IMG/VR virus record: IMGVR_UViG_3300023174_000605
Location: 1 to 24,764 of that record
Reading direction: 5' to 3' (one strand)
From: a virus
Taxonomy: Duplodnaviria; Caudoviricetes
DNA length: 24,764 nt
Part shown: positions 9,582 to 23,570 of the stretch, piece by piece
How positions within the stretch are numbered: position 1 is the stretch's first letter
Layout of the letters: the number at the start of each line of letters is the position of its first letter
Program-made: the position numbers and the translations under genes
The notes under the pieces: generated by a model
Database searches by the model: none
Told to the model about the DNA's origin: nothing
Seen by the model: only the letters and a program-made list of their open reading frames with translations

Positions 9582-10322
9582 TTATCCTAGGAAAAAATCA
9601 AGTGGAGCAGATTTATTTTGCAATTCGTCTTCCAACTCTTTAATTTCTCCTACTGCTTCGTCATACAATTTATCGCCATCCAAGGTGACGCCACCTGGAA
9701 GCTGAATTCCTGAAAACTTTTTAATGTTTGTAGCCCATTGTTTTTTAAATAGAGCAGTAACATATTTTTTTAACCATGATTCATTCCATGCTCTTGAAAA
9801 CTCATTTGGGTCTAAAGCACGATATGCTTCGCAAACAATAATGTTTCCTTCTTTTACATCAGTTCCCCATTTCAAATCTATATTTAATCTGTTTTGTAAA
9901 CGATTAAATCTAAACATCTGTGGACCATTTAGTTCCATGTCCAACAACGCAATGTGCGCCATTACAGTTTTGTAATAGATGATTGAAGTTGAAGTTAAAT
10001 CATATAAGTCGTGTAAACGAAGTTGATATTGAATATCAAAAAGACTTTTGGATGATGATGTTTGCGAAATTGGAATTACACGTGTGATTCCATATACTGC
10101 ATCTGCAATAGGAATATATTGATTTGTAATATCAGTTGAAGTGACAGTGTGCTTTAAATAAACTCGCTCAATACCATCGTAGTGATATAATTTCCAGTAT
10201 TCCAACGCTTCATCGATGCGATCTTCTAACTGATCCTCATCTACGTTAATTTCCAATACTGGAGCACCCAATGCTCTTAAGCAGTATTCTTTTAACCCCT
10301 GTCTAGAAGTTACTACTGCCAT
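9582..10322 (-). CDS. gp13: Neck protein (T4 gp13 family)
   Basis: 246 aa with LKEYCLRALGAPVLEINVDEDQLEDRIDEAL, WLKKY.TAL.KKQW..N..KF.G.QLPGGVTL.G and C-terminal P.DFFLG. Confidence 0.96.
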   Translation of the reverse strand: MAVVTSRQGLKEYCLRALGAPVLEINVDEDQLEDRIDEALEYWKLYHYDGIERVYLKHTVTSTDITNQYIPIADAVYGITRVIPISQTSSSKSLFDIQYQLRLHDLYDLTSTSIIYYKTVMAHIALLDMELNGPQMFRFNRLQNRLNIDLKWGTDVKEGNIIVCEAYRALDPNEFSRAWNESWLKKYVTALFKKQWATNIKKFSGIQLPGGVTLDGDKLYDEAVGEIKELEDELQNKSAPLDFFLG

Positions 10323-10323
10323 T

Positions 10324-12660
10324 TTACTCTCCTAGTTTTGCTTTTAATGCATTAACCTCAGCAGTAAGTTCTTGAACAGCTTTAATTAAAACAGAAACCA
10401 TATTGTTATAATTTAACGATTTATAACCATCATCGCCATTTGCAACGAATTCAGGCATTAATGGTTCAACCTGCTGGGCGATCAAACCTATCTCATGACG
10501 ACCATCTTTATCATATTGGACAGAATTCATTGCTAGGATTTCTTTTAATCCATATGAAGATTCTTTAATGTTAGTCTTCATTCTTTCGTCAGAAGAAATC
10601 TGGAAAGCTCCAGCATATAATGTTCCGTGATATGAGTTACCATTACCATCACGTTGAACTAAAGTGTTTGCAGTATTTGCAGATGTTCCACTAACAGTAT
10701 TGCTAGAAGCAGAAGTTACACGACCTTTAGCATCAACAGTAATAGTTGAGAATGTATAAGTACCAGCAGTAACACCAGAGTTGGCTAATGTTAATGCTTG
10801 GCTATAGTTTGCAGAACCATCAAAACTACCAGAAGCTGTAGCGTCGCCAGTGAAAGCAATGGTGCGAGCAGTTTGTAACTTTGTAGCAGTGCTTGAGTTA
10901 CCAGTAAGTTCACCAGTGATACCACCAGTGGCAGTAATCATTCCAGTTACACCAAGAGTTCCAGCAATAGTAGAGTTACCAGTACCGATAATACCACCAA
11001 GACGTAAGTTGTCATAGGTGGCACCAGTAAAGTCATAAGTTGTTCCTGGGTTTGCTGTAGTGTTAGAGAACAATCTCCATTCACCAGAAGATGCTTGTTT
11101 AATAAGACCAGTTCTCTTATTACCAGATGATACATAAGCACCAAGGATACCAACGTCTGTAGCATTGGCAGCGTTATCTGAAGCCAAATATAACTGTGGT
11201 GTTGTAACAGTTAAAGACTGACTGTTTGTAGTAGTTGTAGTACCAGTAACAGAAAGGTTACCTGCTACGTTTAAAGTTCCACCAACATAAACTGCTCCAG
11301 CGATACCTACGCCACCAGCTACTTGCAGTGCACCAGTAGTAGTACTTGAAGCTGCAGTAGTATTAGAAACTAATAGTCGAGTAGCATTCCATCCACCACG
11401 TTTAGCTGTAGTAGAAGCATCAGTTGCGGTGTAAAATTCTAATTCATCGTTAGATGCACCAGCTGAAGTTTCAGCAATAATATATGTTAAACCATCAACA
11501 GACTTAACACCACCAAGTGAAGACCATGCGCCAGAAGCATATCCTTCAAACGAAGAAATGCTAGAGTTGTAACGAATCTGACCAACAGCAGGAGTAGCTG
11601 GACGCTGAGCAGTAGTACCAGCTGGAATCTGTAAAGATGTAGTGCTGTTCAGAACTACTTGCGCATTGTTGATAGTCAATGTTCCAGTAGAAGCACCTAC
11701 GTTAATTGTAGTTGCTGCACCAAATGCGTTTACTGTAGTAGCAGTAGTATTCCAAAGGTTTTGCGTAGTATTAGAACCAACAACAGTACCTGGACGTAAA
11801 GTTAAAGTTGCAGCAGTGGCATTACCGATATTTAATTGAGTAGCAGCACCGTATGCGTTTACTGTAGTAGCAGTAGTATTAAATACGTTCTGTGTTGAAT
11901 TTGTTCCAACTAAAGTGCCAGGATTTAATGTTAATGTTGCGCTGGCAGCATTACCAACAGTAATTGAACTTGCTCCTGCAAATAATGTTGCCGCAGCAGG
12001 TGAAGCGAAGAATGACGTTGCGCCAGTAGTAGCATCAATCGCTGTTAATCCAGCAAGAGAAGATTGAGAACTACCCAGATCGATAGTGGTAGATCCAAGA
12101 GTTACGGTAGCAGTTGCCCAACCTGGAGCATAACCAGCACCATTGGACTTCAAAAATGTTCCAGAAGCACCAGCAGTAATGAATGTAGTTAAAGACGAAT
12201 CTTGCTGAATAACCAACTGGCCAGCAGAACCACCAGCAATGTTAGTTGCGAATGTAGAGTTAACCGCAGTACCAGTTTGTAGACCAGTAGAGTTAATCCA
12301 TGATGGACCAGAAGTACCACCTGAAATTAAAACCTGACCAGAAGTTCCAGCAGCAGATAATTGAATACCATTAGCAGTACCATATGCAACAGCTCCAGCA
12401 ACTGGAGTAATGGCAGTATTCGTTCCACCGTATTGTAATGAAACTGGACTACCATTCCAAACAGAACCAGTACTGTGAGTTTTATTCAGAACTGTTTGCG
12501 TTGCGTTTGTAGTCAAAGCAATAGAACCACCACCAGCTGTTACGCCATCGTGAATTCTAAGAGTTTTAACTTCAGTGTCGTATGTTAATTCACCGACTGC
12601 GCCAGTGAACGCATTGTTCTGAGTAGTCGTACCTCTTCTAAATTGTACTTGTGTTGCCAT
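10324..12660 (-). CDS. Tail/neck fibre protein with an Mtd_N-like N-terminal domain and a C-terminal intramolecular chaperone (peptidase S74-like)
   Basis: 778 aa, Thr/Ala/Gly-rich. N-terminus QVQFRRGT....FTGAVGELTYDT...LRIHDG.TAGG; C-terminus SDERMKTNI...GLIAQQVE..MPE.V...L.Y......LIKAVQEL plus a coiled coil, typical of autocleaving chaperones. Confidence 0.88.
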   Translation of the reverse strand: MATQVQFRRGTTTQNNAFTGAVGELTYDTEVKTLRIHDGVTAGGGSIALTTNATQTVLNKTHSTGSVWNGSPVSLQYGGTNTAITPVAGAVAYGTANGIQLSAAGTSGQVLISGGTSGPSWINSTGLQTGTAVNSTFATNIAGGSAGQLVIQQDSSLTTFITAGASGTFLKSNGAGYAPGWATATVTLGSTTIDLGSSQSSLAGLTAIDATTGATSFFASPAAATLFAGASSITVGNAASATLTLNPGTLVGTNSTQNVFNTTATTVNAYGAATQLNIGNATAATLTLRPGTVVGSNTTQNLWNTTATTVNAFGAATTINVGASTGTLTINNAQVVLNSTTSLQIPAGTTAQRPATPAVGQIRYNSSISSFEGYASGAWSSLGGVKSVDGLTYIIAETSAGASNDELEFYTATDASTTAKRGGWNATRLLVSNTTAASSTTTGALQVAGGVGIAGAVYVGGTLNVAGNLSVTGTTTTTNSQSLTVTTPQLYLASDNAANATDVGILGAYVSSGNKRTGLIKQASSGEWRLFSNTTANPGTTYDFTGATYDNLRLGGIIGTGNSTIAGTLGVTGMITATGGITGELTGNSSTATKLQTARTIAFTGDATASGSFDGSANYSQALTLANSGVTAGTYTFSTITVDAKGRVTSASSNTVSGTSANTANTLVQRDGNGNSYHGTLYAGAFQISSDERMKTNIKESSYGLKEILAMNSVQYDKDGRHEIGLIAQQVEPLMPEFVANGDDGYKSLNYNNMVSVLIKAVQELTAEVNALKAKLGE
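11724..11880. repeat. 28-bp exact direct repeat, 129-bp (43-aa) period, in the 778-aa fibre gene
   Basis: atgcgtttactgtagtagcagtagtatt at 11724-11751 and 11853-11880, encoding NTTATTVNA twice. Confidence 0.9.
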
Positions 12661-12684
12661 GGTTTTCCTCTAATTTTTATCTTA

Positions 12685-12691
12685 TATTTAG
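12685..12691 (-). promoter_or_regulatory. Late promoter motif (CTAAATA) overlapping the stop of the 953-aa gene
   Basis: The + strand has tatttag, followed on the minus strand by a GAGG Shine-Dalgarno and the ATG of the 778-aa fibre gene. Confidence 0.55.
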
Positions 12692-15549
12692 GCTTGAGCT
12701 TCAGTCCAGAATAAGTTTACGTTGACTTTAGCATTACCAGTACCTAAGTTTTTAACTACAACGGCTAGAACGTCTGGACCATCTGGATAGTTACTATAGC
12801 CACCAATTGCAGAATTTGATAATTCTTTTAGTTTTGTTAAGTCGATTTCAGCAAATCCTCCTGGAGGACCAAGAGTTGAGAAAATCTGTTCTCCTGGGGT
12901 CGCTTCTGTAGTAGTGCTCGTTGAGATCTGAGCAAAAGAAGGTTGTGAACCTAAAGCTGCTTGGTTTACGTTTTCCCAAGAAAGAGTAGATGCATCGATG
13001 TTACCTGGATTTAACATACCAATTAACTGAACAGATTGGTCTGTTGTAATCTGTAACTTTTCCAACAATAATTGCGAACGATTAATCAAGTCTCTATCAC
13101 CGAAGTCTGCAGCAATAGAGTTTGAAACTGATGGGGCTAGTCTAATAAAGAATACACTTTTTGCTGCACCAGCATTAATAGTATTCGCAATAGAAGCATA
13201 GTTAAAGTAGTAACCACGATCTGAGTCAAAGTTACCATCCATAATATATGAAGAACCCCAGTGGTTAATTAATGGTGAACAAGTTACACTAACTAATCCA
13301 ACACCTTGCTGACCTAAACCATAACTATGTGGCATAGCAGCTCTTCCTTGAAAAGTTCTATTTAAACCACCAACGAATTGCGTTAACGTAGCACCACGAG
13401 TACATCCAGTTAATGTATTTCCAGTTTTACCAGTGTATTGAATTAGTTCGCCTTCACAAGAAACTACTCCTCCAGTGGATGGGTATCTAGAAGCATCTTT
13501 TAGTGGAATTGTTGTCTGATTTGCATCCATATCAGAGGTTAAAGTAGAACCTCCAATTTCATTAATAACTTGGTAACGAATAGTTGAGTTACCTGTACGC
13601 ATGTATGCTTCATCATTAATGTTGTTTTGTTTCATTCTATGAACAGGGATCATATTACCATCAGATCCACGAATCATCCAATCAATAAAACCAGCACCAT
13701 ACCATGAGAATTGAATTCCGATCATCTGCATTTTACCAAGATTAATCTTGTAACCAGATTCTCCAGTTCCATCAATTTTATCAATATTAAATTGAGATTG
13801 AGGAACACGCACATCTCTAATAACTGTATATTTTACCTTACCAGAAGGATTAATACCACGATATGCTGGATTGATTGTTAATGTTGTATCATTGGTAATA
13901 GATGCAACTTTATATGTCATTCCACGAATAATAATATTATTACCAGCACGTAGTTGTTGAGTGAAACGACTACTTGTTCCAGTAACTGCTTGAGAACCTG
14001 GAGTGCAAGAAACGAATCCAGATAATTGGTAAGTACCTGAACGCTTACCGACAGCTAACTCTCTTCCATCAAATTCCCAATAAACTCCGTTTTGATCATC
14101 AAATGGACCGCAACGAACGGTAGATCCATGCCAACCGACAACTGTTACACGTGGTAAATCAGTTAATACTGCAGTTGCAGATTCTAGTGTATTTGACGCA
14201 GAGTATGTGAATGTTTGTTCATTAATAATGGAAGTAATACCATAAGTTCCATTATATCCGTCAGTAATAACTCCAGCAATTGTTACTGTTGCTCCAACCT
14301 GACAACCATGGTTGGTTTCGCATACAACAGTAACTACAGATCCTGGAGCAGTACCATTAGCTGAAATTTGGTCTAAATTATGTACTGGACAGAATGCTAC
14401 ACCAGATGTAAACATAACACCTTTACCTGATTGGTAACGAATGTATTTTTTAGTTTGACGAATAGCAGATGCGCCATTAGATGGACTAAATGGACCTAAA
14501 ATAATACCACCATCAAATGGTCTATGAATAGAAATAGCATCCGAACGAACAAAAACCTTTCCAGTTAATCCTGTGTTGCTTACAGAACCACCAACTCGTG
14601 CAGTGTAAGTAAATGTAGTTGGGTTTAAAATTGTTTCAATAAACCAGTTACCTGAAATTAAACTATGATTGGTTCCATTTGAAGTATTGATTACAGTGAT
14701 TGGAGATCCTGGAATCAAACCATGGTTAGCTGATAATGTTACAGTAATTTTTGATGGGTTTACTTGATCGCTAACAATGCTAGTTACTGGCATTTGTGCG
14801 CCAGCATAAAATCCTCCACGACGACCATATGTTGCACTACCGAATAAAGATTGTCCGTTAGTACCAACAATACCTTTAGCGTAATAAGTGAACGTAGTAG
14901 AATTTGGAACAGTAGCAATAATAAACGCACCTTCTGCTCGAGCGAAGTTCGATACTACCGCAAGACCATGCAAAATAACTGGGTCTGCAACTGAAAGACC
15001 ATGCGGAGCTGAACAAGTAACAGTAATAATAGAAGGAGTAGATCCATCAGTCGTTACATTAGAAATAAATAAGTCCAATCCAGGTTTTTCATAGATACCT
15101 GGAATATTTCTAATAGAAGAATAGTTTTGCCACTTTGTAGTTTGTAGACCATACTCAAAGTCAGCGTCAATCATCGCCTGTGGATTTGCAATACGTATAC
15201 GTTCAATAGCATCGGTGCCAAAGAAGTATGGTTTAATAATAGTACCTTGATAAGCTGGAGCATCACTATAGATTGCCAAAGAATGTGTAGACAACATCTC
15301 TGATGTGTCTTTATTCAAAGTAATAGTAGTAACACCATCATATGCAGTATTAAACGTATCACCATCATCTGCGTTAAATGATACTGTTGCGCTTCTAGTA
15401 GGATCACCTAGAGCATAGATATTTTCTTGAGTAGTTTTATTTGTAATAACCAGTAATTGGTTTAAATCAATTTTACCTGGAACTTTAATTGTACCAGCAT
15501 TTGCAGCACCTGGAGTAAAAATGTATTTTTCTGCTAGTTGACGAGCCAT
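12688..15549 (-). CDS. Large virion structural protein, putative fibre-associated or receptor-binding protein with repeated beta-domains
   Basis: 953 aa with three [IV]TV.....HG[LC]....[VI].........TFTY repeats and a central predicted beta-sandwich region (RQTKKYIRYQSGKG, G.FDDQNG.YWE.DG, I.FSWYGAG). This architecture recalls structural proteins of T4-like aquatic phages. Confidence 0.75.
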   Translation of the reverse strand: MARQLAEKYIFTPGAANAGTIKVPGKIDLNQLLVITNKTTQENIYALGDPTRSATVSFNADDGDTFNTAYDGVTTITLNKDTSEMLSTHSLAIYSDAPAYQGTIIKPYFFGTDAIERIRIANPQAMIDADFEYGLQTTKWQNYSSIRNIPGIYEKPGLDLFISNVTTDGSTPSIITVTCSAPHGLSVADPVILHGLAVVSNFARAEGAFIIATVPNSTTFTYYAKGIVGTNGQSLFGSATYGRRGGFYAGAQMPVTSIVSDQVNPSKITVTLSANHGLIPGSPITVINTSNGTNHSLISGNWFIETILNPTTFTYTARVGGSVSNTGLTGKVFVRSDAISIHRPFDGGIILGPFSPSNGASAIRQTKKYIRYQSGKGVMFTSGVAFCPVHNLDQISANGTAPGSVVTVVCETNHGCQVGATVTIAGVITDGYNGTYGITSIINEQTFTYSASNTLESATAVLTDLPRVTVVGWHGSTVRCGPFDDQNGVYWEFDGRELAVGKRSGTYQLSGFVSCTPGSQAVTGTSSRFTQQLRAGNNIIIRGMTYKVASITNDTTLTINPAYRGINPSGKVKYTVIRDVRVPQSQFNIDKIDGTGESGYKINLGKMQMIGIQFSWYGAGFIDWMIRGSDGNMIPVHRMKQNNINDEAYMRTGNSTIRYQVINEIGGSTLTSDMDANQTTIPLKDASRYPSTGGVVSCEGELIQYTGKTGNTLTGCTRGATLTQFVGGLNRTFQGRAAMPHSYGLGQQGVGLVSVTCSPLINHWGSSYIMDGNFDSDRGYYFNYASIANTINAGAAKSVFFIRLAPSVSNSIAADFGDRDLINRSQLLLEKLQITTDQSVQLIGMLNPGNIDASTLSWENVNQAALGSQPSFAQISTSTTTEATPGEQIFSTLGPPGGFAEIDLTKLKELSNSAIGGYSNYPDGPDVLAVVVKNLGTGNAKVNVNLFWTEAQA

Positions 15550-15559
15550 AGTTTATCCT

Positions 15560-18500
15560 TTAGAATCCAAAAATAATAGAGTAAGCAATATAATCTGACT
15601 TAACAGATTGATCTAAGTTATTCAATGATACAATACCATCCAAGCGTAATTGTCCCATATCATAAACGAAGTAAGCAAGCTGAGTAACAGTTCCTAAATC
15701 TTCTGATATACCAATAACGGGATCGCTGACATCTCCTAAATCGCTCATTGCTTGTGGAGCAAAAACAGCAGAAGCTACTGCAACATCGTTATTAGCGTTA
15801 ACCCATTGTGTACCATTAAACTTAAGAACTTGCTGAGCTTGTGGGGCATTAATTACTACATCATCCAACCCATCAAGTGTGACAGTTGGAGCTGGAACAT
15901 TAATAACACCAGTAGTAGAGTTATAAGTTGCACCACCAGAAACGCTAATAGCAGCTCTTGCTCTTGCGTCTGTAAAGTATTTATTCGTTCCTTCAGAGAG
16001 GTCTGAAGTAGATTTTAATGCTAAACGATTATCAAATGCATTGTTAGCACGTGTAGTTGTAAAGTAAAGATTAGTTGAACCTTCAGTAACGCTATCTGTA
16101 GTTGGGTTACTATAACTGATTACACCAGTAGATGAGTTATATGCTAAATTACCACTTACGCTAATAGCACTTCTTGCTCGAGCAGTAGTAAAATATAGAT
16201 TAGTACCTTCTGCTACATTAGTGGTAGACTTAGTTCCCAACCAAGTGTTTGCAGTAGAAGTGAAATCTGCAGTATTTAATTTAGTTCCAACTAAAGTAGT
16301 TAGTGTAGATGCATAGTTTGGATCGTTACCGATCGCTGTTGCCAACTCTTGGAGTGTATCTAATGTAGCAGGTGTTGAGCCAACTAAGTCTGCTACCTTT
16401 GTATTAACATAAGTTTGTGTAGCAATAGTAGTTGTATCAACAGCAATTGCACCAGTGCCACTGTTATAAGAGATACCTGTTCCACCTGAATGTGCAGCTC
16501 TTGCTCTAGCATCAGTATAGTAAAGATTTGTTCCTTCAGCAATATCTGAAGTTGTTGCTTGAGCACCTACTGTTGCACGACCTTTTGTGTCAACAGTAAT
16601 TTTGGTATATGTTCCAGCCCCAATACCTGTTGCTGCCAATGTAGCATTGGTAATATCTGAACCAGTAGTTCCTGATAAAGTTAAATCACCACCAGTGACA
16701 GCAATAGAACTGGAAGGAATAAAAACTGCAGTTGTAGAAACTCCTGTTACCAAACCTTTAGCGTTGACTGTAATCGTTGGGATTGCTGTAGAAGAACCGA
16801 ATGTTCCTACGTTGGAATTTACTGTAGCTAAAGTAACAGAAGTCGTTCCACCAGTAGTTCCAGAACCTGAAACATCACCACTTAAAGTGATCGCTCCAGA
16901 AATAGAAGCAGTTGAAGCTAATGTTACACGACCCTTTGCGTCTATAGTTAAAACAGGAACTGCTGTTGAAGAACCATAAGTTCCTGCAGTTACACCTGAC
17001 GCTGCTAAAGTTAAAGCGGAAGATCCTGCTGTCGAAGTCGCATCACCACTGAATGCTGGCAATCTTGCTGCAGCCAATGTTCCAGATGAAATATTTGATG
17101 CGTTTGTTGTATCAGTTGTAGCTGAAGCAGCAAGACCAGAAATTTTAGATGTTGAGATTGCAGCTGTTGCGCTAATATCGCCATCAACGATAGTGCCATT
17201 GGCAATCATCGCAGAAGTAACAGTACCAGTATCTCCAGTAGTTACTATAGTTCCATCCACGTTTGGAATGGTCAATGTTCTTGTAGTTGCGCTAGTAATA
17301 CCAGACAACTGGAACTGTAATTTCTTAGTTGCGTCAGTTTCATCAACAAAGAATGTTGTGCTGTCTGATAAAGACTTATTAGTTAAAGTCTGAGTACCAG
17401 TTAAAGTCGCTACGGTAGAATCGATACCAATAGTCACTGCTGCAGAACCATTGTATGAGGTTCCAGTTAAACCAGTGCCGATTGTTAATGCGTTTGATGC
17501 AGTTGCAGTAACTGTTATGTTTCCACCAAGAGAAACTGTTTGTCCGTTTACTGTTACTGTGCTATTGGTTAGTTTTGAATTTGCAATAGAACCAGCAAGC
17601 ATTGCATTGGTTACAGTTGCAGAATCTCCAGTAGTTACAACAGTTCCAGAGGTAGCAGGTAAAGTTATAGTTGTTGAACCTGATGTAGCAGGTACTTGAA
17701 CTGTTACACTTCCAGATGAAGAACCATTAATTACTAAAGTTTTTCCTGATGCTAGTGCTAGATGTTCAGAAGAAGTCCAAGCTCCAGTTGCTGACACCCA
17801 GTTAAATGTTTTGTCAGTAGTACCCTTAAGAGTAATACCACCGCCATCTGCAGTGGCATTTGATGGGCTAGCAATAGAACCTAATTCAATATTTTTGTCA
17901 TCTACTGTTAGTGTTGTTGAGTTAACAGTGGTTGTTGTTCCATTTATAGTTAAGTCACCACTAACAGTTAAGCTGCCAGCTGTTATTGCTCCAGTTGAAG
18001 TAATAGAAGCGAATACTGGAGAAGATGTTGTTGATATATCTTGCGCAGTAGCAATTACACCAGTGCTACTGCTATATGTAATACCTGTTCCTGCAGAAAC
18101 TGAAGCTCTTGCACGAGCAGTTGTAAAGTATTGGTTGGTGCTACCTTCTGTTAAATTATCAGTGGTCTTTGCACCGAAAGCAGAGTCAAATCTATTTTGA
18201 GTATAATATAGATTTGTTCCTTCAGCCAAATTGGTTGTAGATTTAGCAGCAAATGCAGTATCAAATCTTGCTTGTGTATAATATAGATTTGTTCCTTCAG
18301 CAATGTCGGTAGTAGTTGCATTTGATGCTGCAGTTACAAGACCTTTACCATTTACTGTTAGTTTGGTAAATGTTCCTACGTTTGAGTTAACTGTCGCAAG
18401 AGTTAATGTTGTAGTAGTGCCAGTTGTTCCTGAACCAGAAACATCGCCTGTAAATGTTAAAGCACCTGAAATGGCTGCTGTGCCAGCTAAAGTAACACGA

Positions 18501-18883
18501 CCATATGTATCGATTGTTAATACTGGAACTGCAGTAGAAGAACCATAAGAGCCAGCAGTAACTCCAGAAGCAGCAAGAGAAACTGTTGAAGCAGTAGAAC
18601 CATTGTAAGCGGAACCAGTTAAACCAGTACCGATTGTTAGGGTTGCTAAATTAGAACCTAGAGCAACACCTGAAATTGTTGAATTTGCTAACTTCGAGTT
18701 AGCGATCGCACCTGAAGCGACATTGCTAAAATTAACTTTGGCTAATTCGTGTCCACCTGCAGTAGTTCCATCATGCATGTGTAAAGAATTATTTGTGGTG
18801 TTGACTGTTACCTCACCGAGTACACCTGTGAATGTACTATGTTGAGAATGAGTACCACGTCTTAATTGTATTTGAAGTGCCAT
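15560..18883 (-). CDS. Long fibre protein with an Mtd_N-like N-terminal domain and multiple internal repeats
   Basis: 1107 aa. N-terminus QIQLRRGT....FTGVLGEVTVNT....HMHDG.TAGG; seven EG(S)TN.Y[YF]T..R repeats; SGVTAG.YG...TID..GRVT repeats; P.TLDTLQELA.AI.NDPN motif common in phage fibres. Confidence 0.88.
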   Translation of the reverse strand: MALQIQLRRGTHSQHSTFTGVLGEVTVNTTNNSLHMHDGTTAGGHELAKVNFSNVASGAIANSKLANSTISGVALGSNLATLTIGTGLTGSAYNGSTASTVSLAASGVTAGSYGSSTAVPVLTIDTYGRVTLAGTAAISGALTFTGDVSGSGTTGTTTTLTLATVNSNVGTFTKLTVNGKGLVTAASNATTTDIAEGTNLYYTQARFDTAFAAKSTTNLAEGTNLYYTQNRFDSAFGAKTTDNLTEGSTNQYFTTARARASVSAGTGITYSSSTGVIATAQDISTTSSPVFASITSTGAITAGSLTVSGDLTINGTTTTVNSTTLTVDDKNIELGSIASPSNATADGGGITLKGTTDKTFNWVSATGAWTSSEHLALASGKTLVINGSSSGSVTVQVPATSGSTTITLPATSGTVVTTGDSATVTNAMLAGSIANSKLTNSTVTVNGQTVSLGGNITVTATASNALTIGTGLTGTSYNGSAAVTIGIDSTVATLTGTQTLTNKSLSDSTTFFVDETDATKKLQFQLSGITSATTRTLTIPNVDGTIVTTGDTGTVTSAMIANGTIVDGDISATAAISTSKISGLAASATTDTTNASNISSGTLAAARLPAFSGDATSTAGSSALTLAASGVTAGTYGSSTAVPVLTIDAKGRVTLASTASISGAITLSGDVSGSGTTGGTTSVTLATVNSNVGTFGSSTAIPTITVNAKGLVTGVSTTAVFIPSSSIAVTGGDLTLSGTTGSDITNATLAATGIGAGTYTKITVDTKGRATVGAQATTSDIAEGTNLYYTDARARAAHSGGTGISYNSGTGAIAVDTTTIATQTYVNTKVADLVGSTPATLDTLQELATAIGNDPNYASTLTTLVGTKLNTADFTSTANTWLGTKSTTNVAEGTNLYFTTARARSAISVSGNLAYNSSTGVISYSNPTTDSVTEGSTNLYFTTTRANNAFDNRLALKSTSDLSEGTNKYFTDARARAAISVSGGATYNSTTGVINVPAPTVTLDGLDDVVINAPQAQQVLKFNGTQWVNANNDVAVASAVFAPQAMSDLGDVSDPVIGISEDLGTVTQLAYFVYDMGQLRLDGIVSLNNLDQSVKSDYIAYSIIFGF
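18201..18301. repeat. 26-bp exact direct repeat, 75-bp period, in the 1107-aa fibre gene
   Basis: gtataatatagatttgttccttcagc at 18201-18226 and 18276-18301, encoding AEGTNLYYT twice. Confidence 0.9.
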
Positions 18884-18892
18884 TCTTTACCT

Positions 18893-19567
18893 TTAAACTA
18901 TAGTTCCTGCGTCTACCATTGCAGACATATTTATTGATTCTGTAATCAACCCTGCGTCAACAACAGGAAATCCTCCACCACCAGTAACAGCTGCCCAAGA
19001 TAAATTAGAACCATCAGTGGTTAAATATTTACCAGCATTACCACTCTGAGAAGGTAATGATGTTCCCTGCGATCCACCAGTTAAAAGGTTGGATCCAACT
19101 CCACCAGTTGCAGCAGATAAATCAATAAATGCGCCACGATTTGATCCACCACTTTCAAAAAATCTAATCTTATTTTGAAAGATGTCAATAGTAACGCTTG
19201 TGGAAATTGTTGTATTCGTTACTGGTTTGTTTAGGGTAATTTCACCACCCTCATCGCCAGAAGAATAATTACTTACTAAATTTTGTCCAGCTGTAATATT
19301 ACCTGTAGCAGACAAAGAAGTAAAAGCACCAGTCGATGGTGTTGTAGCACCGATTGATGTATTATTGATAGTGCTATTATTTAATGTTTTATTTGTTAAG
19401 GTATCTGTGGCAGATGATGCGCCAAATAATTGAATTACGTTTGACGAATCTTTAAAATACAGTTTCCCATCAGCGTAGTTAAGTGCTAACTCGCCATAAT
19501 CTAAATCTGCAGATTGTGGGATCTTTCCTAGTACGGAAGACTTTTTTAACTTAACCGTATTGGCCAT
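18893..19567 (-). CDS. Short fibre/adaptor protein with an Mtd_N-like N-terminus
   Basis: 224 aa with VKLKKS....K.P....L.YGELALNYADGKLYFK, IGATTPSTGAFT and LPSQSGNAGKYLTTDGSNLSW fibre motifs; C-terminal VDAG twice. Confidence 0.82.
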   Translation of the reverse strand: MANTVKLKKSSVLGKIPQSADLDYGELALNYADGKLYFKDSSNVIQLFGASSATDTLTNKTLNNSTINNTSIGATTPSTGAFTSLSATGNITAGQNLVSNYSSGDEGGEITLNKPVTNTTISTSVTIDIFQNKIRFFESGGSNRGAFIDLSAATGGVGSNLLTGGSQGTSLPSQSGNAGKYLTTDGSNLSWAAVTGGGGFPVVDAGLITESINMSAMVDAGTIV

Positions 19568-19601
19568 TATTTACCTTAAAAAAGGACAACTCAATTTTGA
19601 A

Positions 19602-19621
19602 AGAGGGATAAAAATCCCTCT
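19602..19621 (-). terminator. Stem-loop AGAGGGAT-TTTT-ATCCCTCT: weak terminator or leader hairpin
   Basis: Perfect 8-bp inverted repeat with a 4-nt loop between the 869-aa and 224-aa genes; only a short U tract follows on the minus strand. Confidence 0.55.
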
Positions 19622-19631
19622 GTTCTTTTGC

Positions 19632-19638
19632 TATTTAG
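19632..19638 (-). promoter_or_regulatory. Late promoter motif (CTAAATA) overlapping the stop of the 869-aa gene
   Basis: The + strand has tatttag, the same motif and placement as at 12685. Confidence 0.55.
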
Positions 19639-22244
19639 TATGTTCCACCATCTACGTCGCCGTAGACTAGAGTAGTTCCATTTGATTGTAGAACTTTACC
19701 TGAAACGCCAACACTCAACTTACTTAGAGTTGATGCACCAGATGCAACTAACAAGTCACCAGTTGAGTAACTTGATTGTCCAGTACCACCATACCCAGCA
19801 CCGATTGTAGTACCATTCCAAACACCAGTAGTAATAGTACCTAATGTTGTAATAGAAGATTGACCAACATAAGTTGATGCAATATCAATACTGTCAGCAT
19901 TGACTGTAATTCTGTTTGCAGTTCCAACTACATCAACAACACCAGAAGTGAATGTTAAACCAGCACCAGCAACAGTAGAAGCAAGAGTTACAGTATCAGC
20001 AACGATTGCGATACCTGTTCCAACTTGTACGTCAAACTGATTACCATTCTTGATAAGACCAGCACCAGCTGCAATATTATTGGTGATTGAGAATAAACCG
20101 AATGTTAATGGAGATGTTCCAACTGTCAATGTTCCAGTTGAAGTTAATACCCATCCAGTCGCTGCTTGAGTATTACCCTCTTCAACGAAAGTGAATAAAC
20201 CAGAAGTAACTTCGGCATTAGCGTCTGCATCAGAAGAACGAGTCCACGCACCATTGGCAACAACATAGATACCGTTCTGAGATGCAGTGGTTTGATCTTT
20301 AACAAGAACACGATCGCCAGAAACAACAGCAATTCCGTCAATTGTTTGTGTTCCAGAAAGTGTAATGTTGCCAGTAGTAGTAACACGAACTGACTGTTTA
20401 ACATCAAGACCAGAACGAGCAGCATCAACGTAGTTCTTAGTTGCAGCGTCTTGTGGATTTACTGGATCAGCAAGACCAGTAATCTTTTGTCCACTCATCG
20501 CTACATCTGATGAGAATGTTGTAGCTCCAGTAACAGTTAATGTTCCTGCAATCGCAGTATTACCAGAAGTAGCAGCTACTGTAAATTTGTTTACGTTAAT
20601 CGCTAGATCGCCTGTTAAACCAAGAGTACCAGCGATTTGAGTGTTACCAGAAGTAGCATTAACAGTAAACTTGTTGGTTGCTACATCGAAGTTACCCAAT
20701 GAAGAAACTGTGCTAGAGAAAGTAGCAGCACCAGTTACTCCAAGAGTTGTAGAGAAAGTACCTGAAGTGGCACTTAATGCAGCGAGAGTTGTAGCTCCAG
20801 TTACACCTAAAGTTCCAGCTATTGCAGTATTACCTGAAGTGGCAGCAACAGTAAACTTATTAGTTGCAACAGAGAAGTTTCCTGCAACATCTGCAGTACT
20901 TGAGAAAGTCGCTGCTCCAGTTACACCTAAAGTTGAACTTAATGTTGTAGCACCACCAACACCTAAAGTATTGCTGAGGTTAGTTGCTCCAGTTACACCT
21001 AAAGTTCCAGCTACAGAAGTATTACCAGACGCTGCAGTGACTGTAAACTTATTTGTATTTACGGCAAAGTCACCAGAAACATCTAATGTTCCAGAGTAAG
21101 TTCCGTTTACTGCATTAGTGTTAGCGAATGTAGAAGTTCCAGTAACACCGAATGTTCCACCAACAGTAGCGTTACCTGTTATAGAAGCAGAAGCAAGAGT
21201 TGATGCTCCAGCTGCCAAAGCTCCGTTAAGTGTTGTATTACCTGTTACAGTTAAAGTTCCGCCAACAGAAGCATTATTGCTAATAGTTGCTGATGAAAGA
21301 GTAGAAGCACCTGCCGATAATGTTCCAGAAATAGAAGTATTACCGTTGGCAGTATCAACTAAGAACTTAGTTGCTGGAGTAGCAGCACCATCAGTGATGC
21401 GGAAATATTCAGTTGCTGGTGTTGTAGAACCAGATAATGTTAATCCTTGATTAAACTGAACGCTACCGATGTTTAAGTCAGTACCAGCGATACTTAAGTT
21501 ACCACCAACATATAAGTTTCCAGCGATACCAACACCACCAGCAACAGTTAATGCGCCAGATGTTGTGCTAGTAGAAGCAGTAGTTGCGTCAATTTGAACA
21601 GTAGCAATCTGAGAACCGATTCTGAATAAACTTGTGCTTAAAGAAGCAGCTAAGTTACCATCAGTATAGAATCTTAATGTATCATCAGAAGCACCTGGAG
21701 TTGCTTCTGCAGTAATGTATGTTAAGCCATCAACAGAACGGACACCACCTAGTGATGACCAGTTGGAACCTGAATAACCTTCGAAAGAAGTAGTATCAGT
21801 ATTGAAACGAATTGCGCCAGCATAAGCAGGAGTAGTTCTTTGTGCTGTAGTACCAGCAGGAATCATCATCTGGTTTGTACCAGCGATTCTTACAATTGCT
21901 GTAGAAGAATTAGGAGCGATTGTAATATCGCCACTTACTGCGCTAATTGTATTTGGTGCTACATCACCGAAAGCTAAACCACCAACTAAGAACTTGTCAA
22001 TCTTACCTGAGTTATCAAGGATAACTGCTTTACCACTTAAAGTAGACCAAGATCCTGCAGTTCCAGATAATAAGTCAGTGTAGAATTTACCACCGATAAT
22101 TTGCTGCGGTGCGCCACCCGATACTTCAGTACCGAAACCAATGTATAATTTACCTGAGCCAGATGAGTAGGCTAACTCACCATCTCCCAATATCGCTGGA
22201 GCGGAACTTCCGCTCGAACGCTTAATTCTGATTATTGATGCCAT
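19635..22244 (-). CDS. Fibre protein with an Mtd_N-like N-terminus and TNKFTV repeats
   Basis: 869 aa. N-terminus IRIKRS....AP..L.DGELAY.....KLYIG; four NKFTV.A.SGNT..AGTL repeats; ITGLADP.NPQDAATKNYVD followed by LSG.QTIDG.....GDRVLVK.QT.ASQNGIY (common fibre module); ends in DGGTY. Confidence 0.88.
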   Translation of the reverse strand: MASIIRIKRSSGSSAPAILGDGELAYSSGSGKLYIGFGTEVSGGAPQQIIGGKFYTDLLSGTAGSWSTLSGKAVILDNSGKIDKFLVGGLAFGDVAPNTISAVSGDITIAPNSSTAIVRIAGTNQMMIPAGTTAQRTTPAYAGAIRFNTDTTSFEGYSGSNWSSLGGVRSVDGLTYITAEATPGASDDTLRFYTDGNLAASLSTSLFRIGSQIATVQIDATTASTSTTSGALTVAGGVGIAGNLYVGGNLSIAGTDLNIGSVQFNQGLTLSGSTTPATEYFRITDGAATPATKFLVDTANGNTSISGTLSAGASTLSSATISNNASVGGTLTVTGNTTLNGALAAGASTLASASITGNATVGGTFGVTGTSTFANTNAVNGTYSGTLDVSGDFAVNTNKFTVTAASGNTSVAGTLGVTGATNLSNTLGVGGATTLSSTLGVTGAATFSSTADVAGNFSVATNKFTVAATSGNTAIAGTLGVTGATTLAALSATSGTFSTTLGVTGAATFSSTVSSLGNFDVATNKFTVNATSGNTQIAGTLGLTGDLAINVNKFTVAATSGNTAIAGTLTVTGATTFSSDVAMSGQKITGLADPVNPQDAATKNYVDAARSGLDVKQSVRVTTTGNITLSGTQTIDGIAVVSGDRVLVKDQTTASQNGIYVVANGAWTRSSDADANAEVTSGLFTFVEEGNTQAATGWVLTSTGTLTVGTSPLTFGLFSITNNIAAGAGLIKNGNQFDVQVGTGIAIVADTVTLASTVAGAGLTFTSGVVDVVGTANRITVNADSIDIASTYVGQSSITTLGTITTGVWNGTTIGAGYGGTGQSSYSTGDLLVASGASTLSKLSVGVSGKVLQSNGTTLVYGDVDGGTY
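20520..21080 (-). repeat. Four G[DN][FL].[VI]..NKFTV.A.SGNT..AGTL repeats, including a 28-bp exact DNA repeat
   Basis: gctccagttacacctaaagttccagcta at 20794-20821 and 20986-21013, with a 21-bp partial copy at 20914-20934; outer boundaries approximate. Confidence 0.85.
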
Positions 22245-22259
22245 CTGTTATTCTCCATT

Positions 22260-22511
22260 TTAATAATACCCACCTTCCATGTTTTGCGCATCTAAGGTGG
22301 TTGAGGCGGTCCATTTTTGTGTTGTTTCTCTGTAAATCAATATTGACCCAGTTACTTTACCATTTGTGGTAACATCAACGTCTGCAATATTAGACATTGA
22401 TTCTACTACAGCTGGGTTAGCCAAATTGGTATTGGAAAGAACGATCGTGCCTTCTGATACTGCAACTTGTAACGCTTCATCAGGCTGAACTATTGCTACT
22501 GTGTCTGCCAT
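22260..22511 (-). CDS. Small fibre-associated adaptor protein
   Basis: 83 aa with an IADVD......GSILIY.....KW motif (similar to LDDV......QVLKFNGTQW in the 1107-aa fibre), ending in EGGYY; tightly packed in the operon. Confidence 0.78.
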   Translation of the reverse strand: MADTVAIVQPDEALQVAVSEGTIVLSNTNLANPAVVESMSNIADVDVTTNGKVTGSILIYRETTQKWTASTTLDAQNMEGGYY

Positions 22512-22513
22512 GT

Positions 22514-22846
22514 TTATCTCGTTATTTCTGGGGTTACTGTTACGATTCCTTCTATGACCCTTGTTTTAGTTCCTGATGGTGATGTTATCTCTACGTCATA
22601 TAGCCATCTTCCAGCTGGTATAGCAGAAGATTGGGTATTGTTTAACTGGAGACGAACCTTGCCTTGCGCAGCGTCATAAAGAGATGTTGTGAAGTTATAT
22701 ACAGTGGAAGATGAGTAAGATTTTCTCATCTGAGACGCCACGCTATACCCAGTCAGATTCAATGGTTGTCCGTTAGTAGCAGCCACAGTAATAATTGTAC
22801 TGTAGTCAGCTCCAGCGTCTACAAAAAGGTTGCTAACAGTTGCCAT
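22514..22846 (-). CDS. Small beta-sandwich virion adaptor protein (BppU-N/LtfC-like fold suspected)
   Basis: 110 aa with NL.VDAGADY, LNLTGY...SQMRKSY.S, G.V.L.L...Q...I.AGR..YDVEI and TRVIEG.VTVTP.ITR; first gene after the leftward late promoters. Confidence 0.8.
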   Translation of the reverse strand: MATVSNLFVDAGADYSTIITVAATNGQPLNLTGYSVASQMRKSYSSSTVYNFTTSLYDAAQGKVRLQLNNTQSSAIPAGRWLYDVEITSPSGTKTRVIEGIVTVTPEITR

Positions 22847-22876: not shown

Positions 22877-22918
22877 TATTTATCATATTTAGAAACGCTA
22901 AATACAGTTGTATAAATA
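22877..22918. promoter_or_regulatory. Divergent late-promoter cluster
   Basis: Minus-strand ATAAATA (22877-22883) and CTAAATA (22886-22892); plus-strand CTAAATA (22898-22904) and a perfect TATAAATA (22911-22918). Confidence 0.75.
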
Positions 22919-22961
22919 CTTTTTTGCTGCGAAGCGATAATTTTTAACTCATGGAGATAAC

Positions 22962-23570
22962 ATGGAAACTACTCAAAACACCCCAGAAGTCAATAAACTT
23001 GTAACAGAATCTTTCGCAAAAGAACTGTTCCCAACACAATTCCGCAGTTTTGATATTAACCCAGAAATGATGGATGGGTTAACCTTTAGCGATCAAGATT
23101 TTATTGACTTGGTGAATTCATGTTCTACGAACGTAACTACTGAATTGATGTTTACAGAAGATAACAAATATGTAGAAAAACTGAAAGAAATCGTTTACAC
23201 TATTTGCCAAGATCTTCCAGAATTTAATAATGAGATGCAATATACACCTGTTATTATTGGATCTAATGCTCTGTTCCAACAAAAACTAGAACACATTCCA
23301 TTACATGCATATGAGCATGTTCCACTAGTATTCACGTTTGTTCTTCATACAGGAGATTACACACCTCCAACATATTTTGCAGATCCACGTGGTGGCGTAA
23401 CTACAACACGTCAGCTAGTTGCTCAGAATTTAGTTTCAACTTCTTTCCAAATCAAAGGTAGATTTGGTGAGGTTTTTGTAACTCCTGGACATTTGATGCG
23501 CTACACAGAAACTAATTTAGACACTCAAGCCTATGTGACTTTAAATATTAAAATTGGGTTTGGGCGTTAA
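22962..23570 (+). CDS. Putative 2OG-Fe(II) oxygenase-like (DSBH fold, TIGR02466-like) protein with degenerate metal ligands
   Basis: 202 aa with a GGAG Shine-Dalgarno. LFPT near the N-terminus, PLHAY...L.FTF.L, F.DPR, G.VFVTPG.L.....TN and terminal TLNI match the layout of phage TIGR02466-type proteins. Confidence 0.65.
   Translation: METTQNTPEVNKLVTESFAKELFPTQFRSFDINPEMMDGLTFSDQDFIDLVNSCSTNVTTELMFTEDNKYVEKLKEIVYTICQDLPEFNNEMQYTPVIIGSNALFQQKLEHIPLHAYEHVPLVFTFVLHTGDYTPPTYFADPRGGVTTTRQLVAQNLVSTSFQIKGRFGEVFVTPGHLMRYTETNLDTQAYVTLNIKIGFGR

Follow-up and report, generated by a model that had tools for sequence, protein, structure and literature searches.

In phage T4, the distal rod of the long tail fibre has the composition (gp36)3-(gp37)3 (2026 preprint 10.64898/2026.03.06.709160), and the N-terminal region of gp37 is bound by trimeric gp36 (PMC3004832). 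In the T4 record, gp36 ends in ...QDFGYY directly before gp37, which starts with MATLKQIQFKRSK..GELAINL (..IQFKRSK..). In BPP-1, bbp9, annotated as a putative tail fibre protein, ends in ...GLADLGGIA directly before mtd, and the Mtd protein is located at the distal tips of the tail fibres (PMC3240598). Here, we analyse the fibre cassette of an uncultured T4-like myovirus, IMG/VR virus record IMGVR_UViG_3300023174_000605, whose complete sequence (24,764 nucleotides, nt; estimated 15% complete) is hereafter called the window. The seven genes of the cassette, named by the length of their products in amino acids (aa), follow one another as 110, 83, 869, 224, 1107, 953 and 778 upstream of gp13 (Table 1). 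Along the series, proteins that carry an acidic Asp-x-Gly tail are followed by proteins that begin with a basic N-terminal head, or cap, resembling that of gp37 or Mtd (tails and endings are given up to the last residue before the stop codon). From comparison of these sequences we consider it probable that 83 to 869, 869 to 224 and 224 to 1107 are end-to-end joints of the kind formed by T4 gp36-gp37 and by the BPP-1 fibre with Mtd.

How would such a fibre be put together? The acidic C-terminal tail, whose Asp-x-Gly stands 2-3 residues from the end, would bind to the basic N-terminal cap (gp37-N or Mtd_N) of the next protein in the same kind of joint as T4 gp36 to gp37 and BPP-1 fibre to Mtd, and the contact would be electrostatic with a contribution of the terminal hydrophobic residue. 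Consecutive trimers would be joined end to end, beginning with the 110-aa p132-like anchor and continuing with 83, 869, 224 and 1107; 953 and 778 would attach at a C-terminal module of 1107 that ends in SIIFGF, with 778 as the distal tip. We favour this chain of adjacent pairs because of the homology with T4 and BPP-1, the recurrence of the arrangement in IMG/VR samples and in 12 of 12 cultured phages, the exchanges of heads that track the tails and the lack of tails in the terminal fibres.

The likeness to the T4 long tail fibre lies in the tail type, in the homologous head of 224 and in a gene order that would equal the physical order. Since T4 gp36-gp37 has it, the pairing of a [DE]GGxY tail with a following K[RK]S head may be read as the sequence signature of a known physical joint. 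T4, however, has one such joint, whereas the cassette would have at least three in a row, includes tiny 83-aa adaptors and uses a second (Mtd_N) head type together with a double Asp-x-Gly tail; an equivalent of gp34/gp35 is absent from it. The resemblance of 83 and 869 to the gp36 family is confined to the last five residues, and no kinship with gp36 showed, because neither protein matches any Pfam family (0 families at E <= 0.01). As regards BPP-1, the heads of 1107 and 778 are members of Mtd_N and the gene preceding mtd has an Asp-x-Gly tail. Mtd, with its C-type lectin domain and diversity-generating retroelement, is a short receptor-binding tip, whereas in the window the Mtd_N caps lie on long fibre segments and 1107 is internal to the proposed chain; moreover, bbp9 is known as the Mtd-carrying fibre from annotation only.

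The tails of 83, 869, 224 and 1107 and the heads of 869, 224, 1107 and 778 quoted in the original prediction are all present verbatim in the translations. Its description of the four heads as Mtd_N-like holds for 1107 and 778, which pass the gathering cut-off of the Pfam family Mtd_N (PF18454; 26.3 bits, required at the protein N-terminus) with 49 bits (5.6e-13) and 42.8 bits (4.8e-11) respectively, in both cases over residues 5-41. Residues 2-109 of 1107 also match the Mtd entry 1yu0 of the PDB (1.8e-8). The K[RK]S heads of 869 (13.2 bits) and 224 (no match) are under that cut-off, and 8 of 30 members of the K[RK]S family match Mtd_N weakly, with a best E of 0.0012. A profile of 30 K[RK]S heads aligned to a profile of 26 Mtd_N-type heads gave 94.7% (E 5.6e-8, 41 columns), and the 224-type head profile aligned with hhalign to residues 1-60 of T4 gp37 gave 98.6% (E 5.8e-16, 52 columns). 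In agreement with the latter, BLASTP of the 224 N-terminus against gp37 found 39% identity over 44 aa (E 2e-9), and the 224 head is matched over residues 4-51 by PHROGs whose annotation reads 'long tail fiber protein distal subunit'. By these sequence criteria, the heads of 869 and 224 are gp37-N homologues and divergent relatives of Mtd_N, closer to the N-terminus of T4 gp37. Heads are strictly N-terminal: a scan that did not require an ATG gave 122 QxQxRRGT..FTG sites, every one in that position, and natural tail-head fusions, searched for as internal heads in open reading frames (ORFs) of at least 150 aa in the large loci, numbered 0.

With respect to the tails, those of 83, 869 and 224 are C-terminal as originally described, while the three motifs of 1107 (SDLGDV, EDLGTV and YDMGQL) lie 31-70 residues before the end, inside a conserved module of ~70 aa (...SIIFGF; alignment by eye). 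In the alignment of tails that includes the 224-aa type, D50, G52, D65 and G67 are the sole invariant positions among otherwise unrelated proteins. Alignment of the 83-aa family (tiny proteins of 70-102 aa) shows A5, G55, L58, G80 and G81 to be invariant. The 869 family (55 distinct members, 665-1149 aa) is conserved at both ends, with a mean pairwise identity of 0.71 over the first 60 residues and 0.88 over the last 14; identity is 0.38 at residues -60 to -15 and the middle of the protein is mosaic. Tails and heads are complementary in charge, with a mean net value of -1.34 for the last 10 residues of the former and +2.5 for the first 12 residues of the latter, although the definitions of the motifs account for part of this.

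Relatives of the 110-aa protein number 330 in IMG/VR; the analysis covered the best 80 loci, which are homologous, so that counts made on them are not independent. Tails and heads are paired far beyond chance: among 663 unique junctions, 88 had both tail and head, 11 the tail only, 35 the head only and 529 neither (Fisher odds ratio 121, p 1.6e-67; the loci are not phylogenetically independent). The original prediction had proposed a survey of motif co-occurrence and order across related genomes, and tail and head types are indeed correlated: in the 80 loci, the type of head agrees with the tail before it at 90 of the 103 unique junctions. These comprise 83-type tails before IKRS heads (37/37), DGGTY tails before LK[KR]S heads (40/40) and terminal D-x-G tails before QxQxRRG heads (13/13). 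The remaining 13 junctions are 11 QxQxRRG heads located after a 953-like gene and two IKRS heads located after an inserted endonuclease-like gene. The first part of the cassette is constant: wherever the ORF after the 110-like gene is visible (79 of 79 loci), it is an 83-like gene with a GGx[FY] ending, and the third gene, if visible and at least 300 aa long, encodes an IKRS-headed fibre in 66 of 66 loci. Genes beyond the IKRS-headed fibre are highly variable.

What happens when fibre bodies move? Across the 80 loci, the body is common to both members (at least 150 aa with at least 40% identity) in 125 pairs of proteins whose head types differ. For example, a 609-aa protein of locus L022 has an LKKS head and stands directly after an ..IDGGTY ending, while over residues 225-609 it shows 59% identity to a QFRRG-headed protein of L008. 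Another case is a protein with 99% likeness to the 1107 of the window: a stretch of 390 aa in it aligns at 59% identity with an LKKS-headed protein of L078. At the other end of the cassette, the tail motif is present in 0 of 16 distinct proteins encoded just before gp13 in the relatives, which end in S74 chaperones or in ...ATLFKV. The 778 protein fits this pattern and, as the original prediction had it, ends in an S74-like chaperone and has no plug of its own: Peptidase_S74 (PF13884) is found at residues 690-739 with 43.5 bits (3.8e-11; cut-off 22 bits), and 778 is by sequence a tip-type protein with an S74 chaperone domain.

Two unbiased scans of IMG/VR widened the comparison. A scan for IDGGTY followed by TAA, covering 3 of the 64 parts of the collection, gave 122 sites, all of them at ORF ends (~3100 stretches estimated in total); a scan for MxxQxQxRRGT gave 123 sites, 120 with an upstream ORF (~2400 stretches estimated in total). 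The gene after the 122 IDGGTY sites had a K[RK]x head in 59 cases and a QxQxRRGT head in three, was gp13 in three, had no readable ORF in 11 and was of another kind in 46. Upstream of the Mtd_N-type heads, an Asp-x-Gly tail was present in 61 of 120 cases, and the C-termini at the 123 sites included 7 of the form [DE][GSF]Gx[YF], 40 DxGx(1-4) and 14 DxGGx(1-3). Tail followed by cap recurs across unrelated phages: the 55 tail-bearing proteins with enough visible sequence before Mtd_N-type genes fall into 22 unrelated body clusters. Subtypes of the double D-x-G tail co-vary with those of the head, collagen-like ..DGG.P.S.YGG....D.GG. endings preceding RRGTxxxW..NPxL heads and ..D[YFWA]G[LS][IV]T....D[YFA]G... 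endings preceding RRGT......FTG heads.

These samples do not agree with the strict two-class code of the original prediction. Heads of the QxQxRRGT type come after DGGT[YF] tails in 7 of 123 sampled cases and in 3 of 122, the same IDGGTY tail stands before both IKRS-type and LKKS-type heads, and there are at least three classes of Asp-x-Gly tail in addition to upstream endings without Asp-x-Gly (..AIAVALG, ..RTYxxII and 953-like). The abundance of the motifs, with the ~3100 IDGGTY and ~2400 MxxQxQxRRGT stretches estimated in IMG/VR, points to a common design and not to a curiosity. A broader and more tentative proposal, which we rate at somewhat short of an even chance, is that the Asp-x-Gly peptide and the gp37-N/Mtd_N cap form a universal reusable connector of trimers in thousands of myo-, sipho- and podoviruses, T4 and BPP-1 among them, with the cap subtypes serving as address labels.

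Cultured phages of different families show the same arrangement, with an Asp/Asn-x-Gly tail at or near the end of the upstream protein in 12 of 12. Six of them have K[RK]S heads, and in all six a ..D[GF]Gx[YF] tail lies upstream: S-CBS2, Ralstonia PY059YO380, Vibrio 1.293.O (three in series), Klebsiella Metamorpho, Yersinia phiR1-RT and P-HM2, where the tail is one gene further upstream. The endings DFGNY of Metamorpho and DFGAY of phiR1-RT are of the same joint type as DFGYY of T4. Similarly, D/N-x-G occurs in the last 11 residues of the protein upstream of the Mtd_N head in 6 of 6 cultured phages, within the last six residues in five of them; in Vibrio K385 the last upstream motif is 9-11 residues before the end. 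Limnohabitans phage DC31 carries the whole 110-83-869-224N module, its 110-like gene being likewise followed by an 83-like gene, beside the portal gene, in a different genomic setting.

What else could bring tails and heads together? Each headed fibre might dock separately on the baseplate or neck, the tails being trimer-capping or shaft-folding elements and the order a product of gene clustering and block inheritance. Several observations count against the end-to-end chain, and most of them would suit such independent attachment. The 80 related loci are not independent and, because tail and next head lie within ~150 nt of DNA, linkage alone could hold them together. In the IDGGTY sample, 49 of 122 tails have no headed gene after them, namely the 46 followed by other genes and the three directly before gp13; inspected by eye, the 46 comprise ~27 small proteins overlapping a Gly-rich gene, ~8 cases before a small coiled-coil gene and ~5 heads missed by the regular expression. 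Conversely, 59 of 120 Mtd_N-type heads have upstream proteins with other endings: ..AIAVALG in 16, 953-like in 18, ..RTYxxII in five and others in 20 (three more sites had no ORF). In two loci, L072 and L074, tandem paralogs that start with the Mtd_N-type head MSKQVRFRRGT and end in ..EEIYGFV lack an upstream Asp-x-Gly tail. As for structure, fold searches with the K-type head, meant to relate it to the N-terminal beta-prism fold of Mtd (residues 1-45), gave no usable match, and the PDB copy searched contained no solved structure of a tail-head joint, isolated Mtd crystals being the sole match and the gp37-N-type profile having none. The fold searches used an AlphaFold2 (AF2) monomer model of 224 residues 1-55 (predicted local distance difference test, pLDDT, 82.7; four strands), which has little power here because it represents a single chain of a domain that intertwines as a trimer: Foldseek against the PDB gave a best E of 0.21 with Mtd not listed, and VIA-align gave a best Z of 4.2 to the trimerisation domains of collagen XV/XVIII, with Mtd not among the rows shown. 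Sequence searches of the PDB with K-type heads returned chance-level rows only.

Against independent attachment, gp36 of T4 has the same tail type and binds the N-terminal region of gp37 (PMC3004832), proteins of 70-102 aa with no known domain and a predicted fold of one hairpin plus tail stand between anchor and fibre, the head type tracks the upstream tail through body swaps, the terminal fibres are tail-less, and 22 unrelated bodies bear the tail before an Mtd_N gene. For these reasons we consider independent attachment unlikely and the end-to-end joints the better account.

A different kind of explanation is that the motif is a nucleotide artefact, its Gly codons serving the next gene as ribosome-binding site or as a signal for translational coupling. 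In its favour, GGA is the commonest Gly codon (30 of 60) and the motif ends 8-12 nt before ATG in ~25 of 60 cases. However, the motif is fixed to the stop codon (2-3 residues, 57/60) and not to the ATG, from which it is separated by 8-62 nt, and all four Gly codons are used in it. We reject the ribosome-binding-site artefact on these grounds; in addition, the gap between 869 and 224 in the window is 67 nt and the motif is kept as protein in T4, BPP-1 and podoviruses, so that this explanation is extremely improbable.

The ordered, gene-collinear chain from the 110-aa protein to 778 set out in the original prediction is supported for the adjacent pairs 83 to 869, 869 to 224 and 224 to 1107; for the step from 1107 to 778 the evidence is co-inheritance across the intervening 953 gene. 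Among loci reaching gp13, three elements (SIIFGF module, 953-like gene and QVQFRRG fibre) occur together in 11, are missing together in 11 and are partially present in 0, and the 953-like gene is always located between the other two. The 778-type heads always come after a 953-like ..LFW[ST]EAQA ending, separated from it by 22-27 nt (in the window, 27 nt). The module itself contains an internal double D-x-G with the spacing of 14 seen in terminal tails, followed by an extension of 45 aa. Such a pattern is compatible with a branched distal end, in which the SIIFGF module of 1107 would carry both 953 and 778, in the way that T4 gp35 joins two rods, or with 778 docking on 953 and not on 1107. Nevertheless, the D-x-G motifs of 1107 are internal while all other tails are terminal, and 953 has no known family or structure, and we regard these distal arrangements as rather doubtful. 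The 953-aa protein matches cyanomyovirus structural proteins by tblastn (e.g. S-CAM1, 47.9%); searches found no known family and no PDB relative for it, and ESM Atlas gave unnamed viral clusters only.

At the proximal end, the protein that had been described as an adaptor of 110 aa is likely, on sequence grounds, a homologue of T5 p132. It matches phrog_1084 (1.7e-29) and phrog_3304, 'L-shaped tail fiber protein assembly' (2.5e-22), and its phmmer matches in the PDB include 8hqz_Q (9e-5) and T5 p132 (7qg9_R, 0.0025); the score with Pfam BppU_N (18.8 bits) is under the 23.1 cut-off. p132 is an immunoglobulin (Ig)-like, BppU_N-like collar protein that anchors the side fibres via their N-terminal ~50 residues (PMC10038345). 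T5, with its L-shaped pb1 fibre, differs from the window in being a siphovirus with a dodecameric collar around the p140 ring, whereas the window has the extra 83-aa protein between anchor and fibre. For this 83-aa protein no Pfam family was found, a PDB sequence search returned chance-level rows only, and the AF2 monomer is poor (pLDDT 54, predicted template modelling score 0.26), with a single hairpin.

A fibre of separate trimers encoded by neighbouring genes has a solved precedent in the neck fibre gp82-gp81-gp80 of the Anabaena myophage A-1(L), where the trimers are arranged head to tail and N-terminal beta-hairpins dock on the previous C-terminal domain (PMC10966104). We considered this fibre as a member of the same joint family and rejected it: none of gp82, gp81 and gp80 carries an Asp-x-Gly tail or an Mtd_N/gp37-N head, and with both motifs absent A-1(L) is an analogue and not a relative. 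Phages G7C and CBA120 have branched tailspike complexes in which small docking modules fasten several receptor-binding proteins to one another. Podophage A1002, with its rope-and-dimer chain fibres (PMC13730344), is a comparable case. These three systems differ from the present proposal in that T4 gp10-like or beta-sheet-augmentation docks on a scaffold are used, and not a C-terminal peptide on an N-terminal cap. A rule relating end motifs was not found in the literature searched (open papers without supplements): DGGTY, IDGGT and DFGYY were absent in a phage context, and the T4 joint is described without it in the sources consulted.

Should the tails and caps prove to be true connectors, sequence alone would reveal how long multi-protein fibres are built in uncultured phages, which is impossible at present: gene order and end motifs would predict the physical build, and whole segments would be exchangeable without losing assembly. 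This would explain the shuffling of fibre bodies between positions with assembly kept, and would give a molecular handle on a classic unsolved detail, how T4 gp36 grips gp37. For the window alone the meaning is more modest: its fibre would be jointed like that of T4, but have more joints and use smaller adaptors.

The assignment of the window to an uncultured T4-like myovirus is based on its T4-type neck, sheath, tube and portal genes, on the identity of the portal (55.8% to Methylophilales phage Melnitz and ~51% to cyanomyoviruses) and on the finding of no near-identical DNA among cultured phages. Pfam and PHROGs matches place downstream of the cassette a gp13-like adaptor, T4_neck-protein, gp15, the large terminase, sheath, tube, portal and prohead protease, and the minus strand carries all large ORFs except one. 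The features of the cassette are collected in Table 1.

Table 1. Fibre cassette of the window and its boundary gene (window coordinates)
Feature	Coordinates	Strand	Evidence
110-aa protein, likely Ig-like fibre anchor related to T5 p132 / BppU_N	22514..22846	-	
83-aa adaptor; tail ...NMEGGYY (tail codons 22263-22280)	22260..22511	-	translation
869-aa fibre segment; head MASIIRIKRSS..GELAY (22110-22244), tail ...GDVDGGTY (19638-19655)	19635..22244	-	
224-aa connector; gp37-N-like head MANTVKLKKSS..GELAL (19433-19567), double Asp-x-Gly tail VVDAGLITESINMSAMVDAGTIV (18896-18964)	18893..19567	-	
1107-aa fibre segment; Mtd_N head MALQIQLRRGT..GEV (18749-18883), C-terminal module (15563-15772)	15560..18883	-	
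953-aa virion structural protein	12688..15549	-	phrog_5838 1.6e-248
778-aa distal-type fibre; Mtd_N head MATQVQFRRGT..GEL (12526-12660), Peptidase_S74 chaperone (10444-10593), no tail motif	10324..12660	-	
gp13-like neck/adaptor gene, cassette boundary	9582..10322	-	phrog_211 head-tail adaptor 1.3e-41

The sole sizeable plus-strand gene of the window (22911-23570) encodes a 202-aa protein with a weak match to phrog_81, 2OG-Fe(II) oxygenase (5e-06), and is adjoined by a 359-aa minus-strand gene with a weak QueC-like match. The T4-type late promoter TATAAATA has a single match in the window, at 22911-22918 on the plus strand before the 202-aa gene, and none in the cassette (2.55 matches expected by chance).

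Within the cassette, residues 619-797 of 869 (window 19854-20390) match the PDB entry 9nx3_A, 'capsid decoration protein' (3.6e-7), and PHROGs annotated as head decoration; S-CBS2 gp051, which has the same ends as the 869-aa protein, is also annotated as head decoration. On account of this match and this annotation, the fibre may be located on the head or neck and not on the baseplate. An internal motif, IPAGTTAQR.(5-6)G.IR[FY]N....SFEGY.G..WSSLGG, is common to 869 (window 21735-21875, residues ~124-170) and 778 (11512-11664, residues ~333-383); it corresponds to the phrog_6005 and phrog_25721 matches and is loosely head-like yet internal.

Several features of other loci also deserve mention. 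A gene of ~225 aa (MRKTWKVENFKM..YYGCRF..) that looks like a mobile endonuclease-type insertion lies between the 83-like and the IKRS-headed genes in L034 (226-aa ORF), L041 and L043. The tandem Mtd_N-headed paralogs of L072 (6539-9673) and L074 (424-3521) are found upstream of the 110-like gene as three genes of 216-244 aa after a 320-aa protein ending in ..YLGK, and may be a set of alternative short fibres. In L005 (2695-4237) and its relatives, proteins of the structural region end in alternating Cys-Asn runs such as ..NCNCNCACNCNCACNCNC and ..YNCNCVCNC. In the scanned samples, 16 of the loci L086-L207 (e.g. L092, L096, L113 and L114) show the ending ..[ED].FATAIA[VI]ALG 4 nt before MxTQVQFRRGT heads, which may be another type of connector without Asp-x-Gly. 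In ~27 of the loci L208-L329 (e.g. L209, L222, L226 and L240), small ..SPTFTGTVT..GTIDGGTY proteins (at most 111 aa from stop to stop) have a stop codon that overlaps, as ATGA, the start of a Gly-rich protein without a cap domain, a second context for the tail. Finally, a small coiled-coil gene (MDQTKFINSY.. or MNAQIVINTLQKK..) follows the IDGGT[YF] gene in ~8 loci of L208-L329 (L215, L249, L250 and L324) and in P-HM2 (L335, 1356-1562), where it lies between the IDGGT[YF] gene and the next headed gene; its product could be an assembly factor for the joint.

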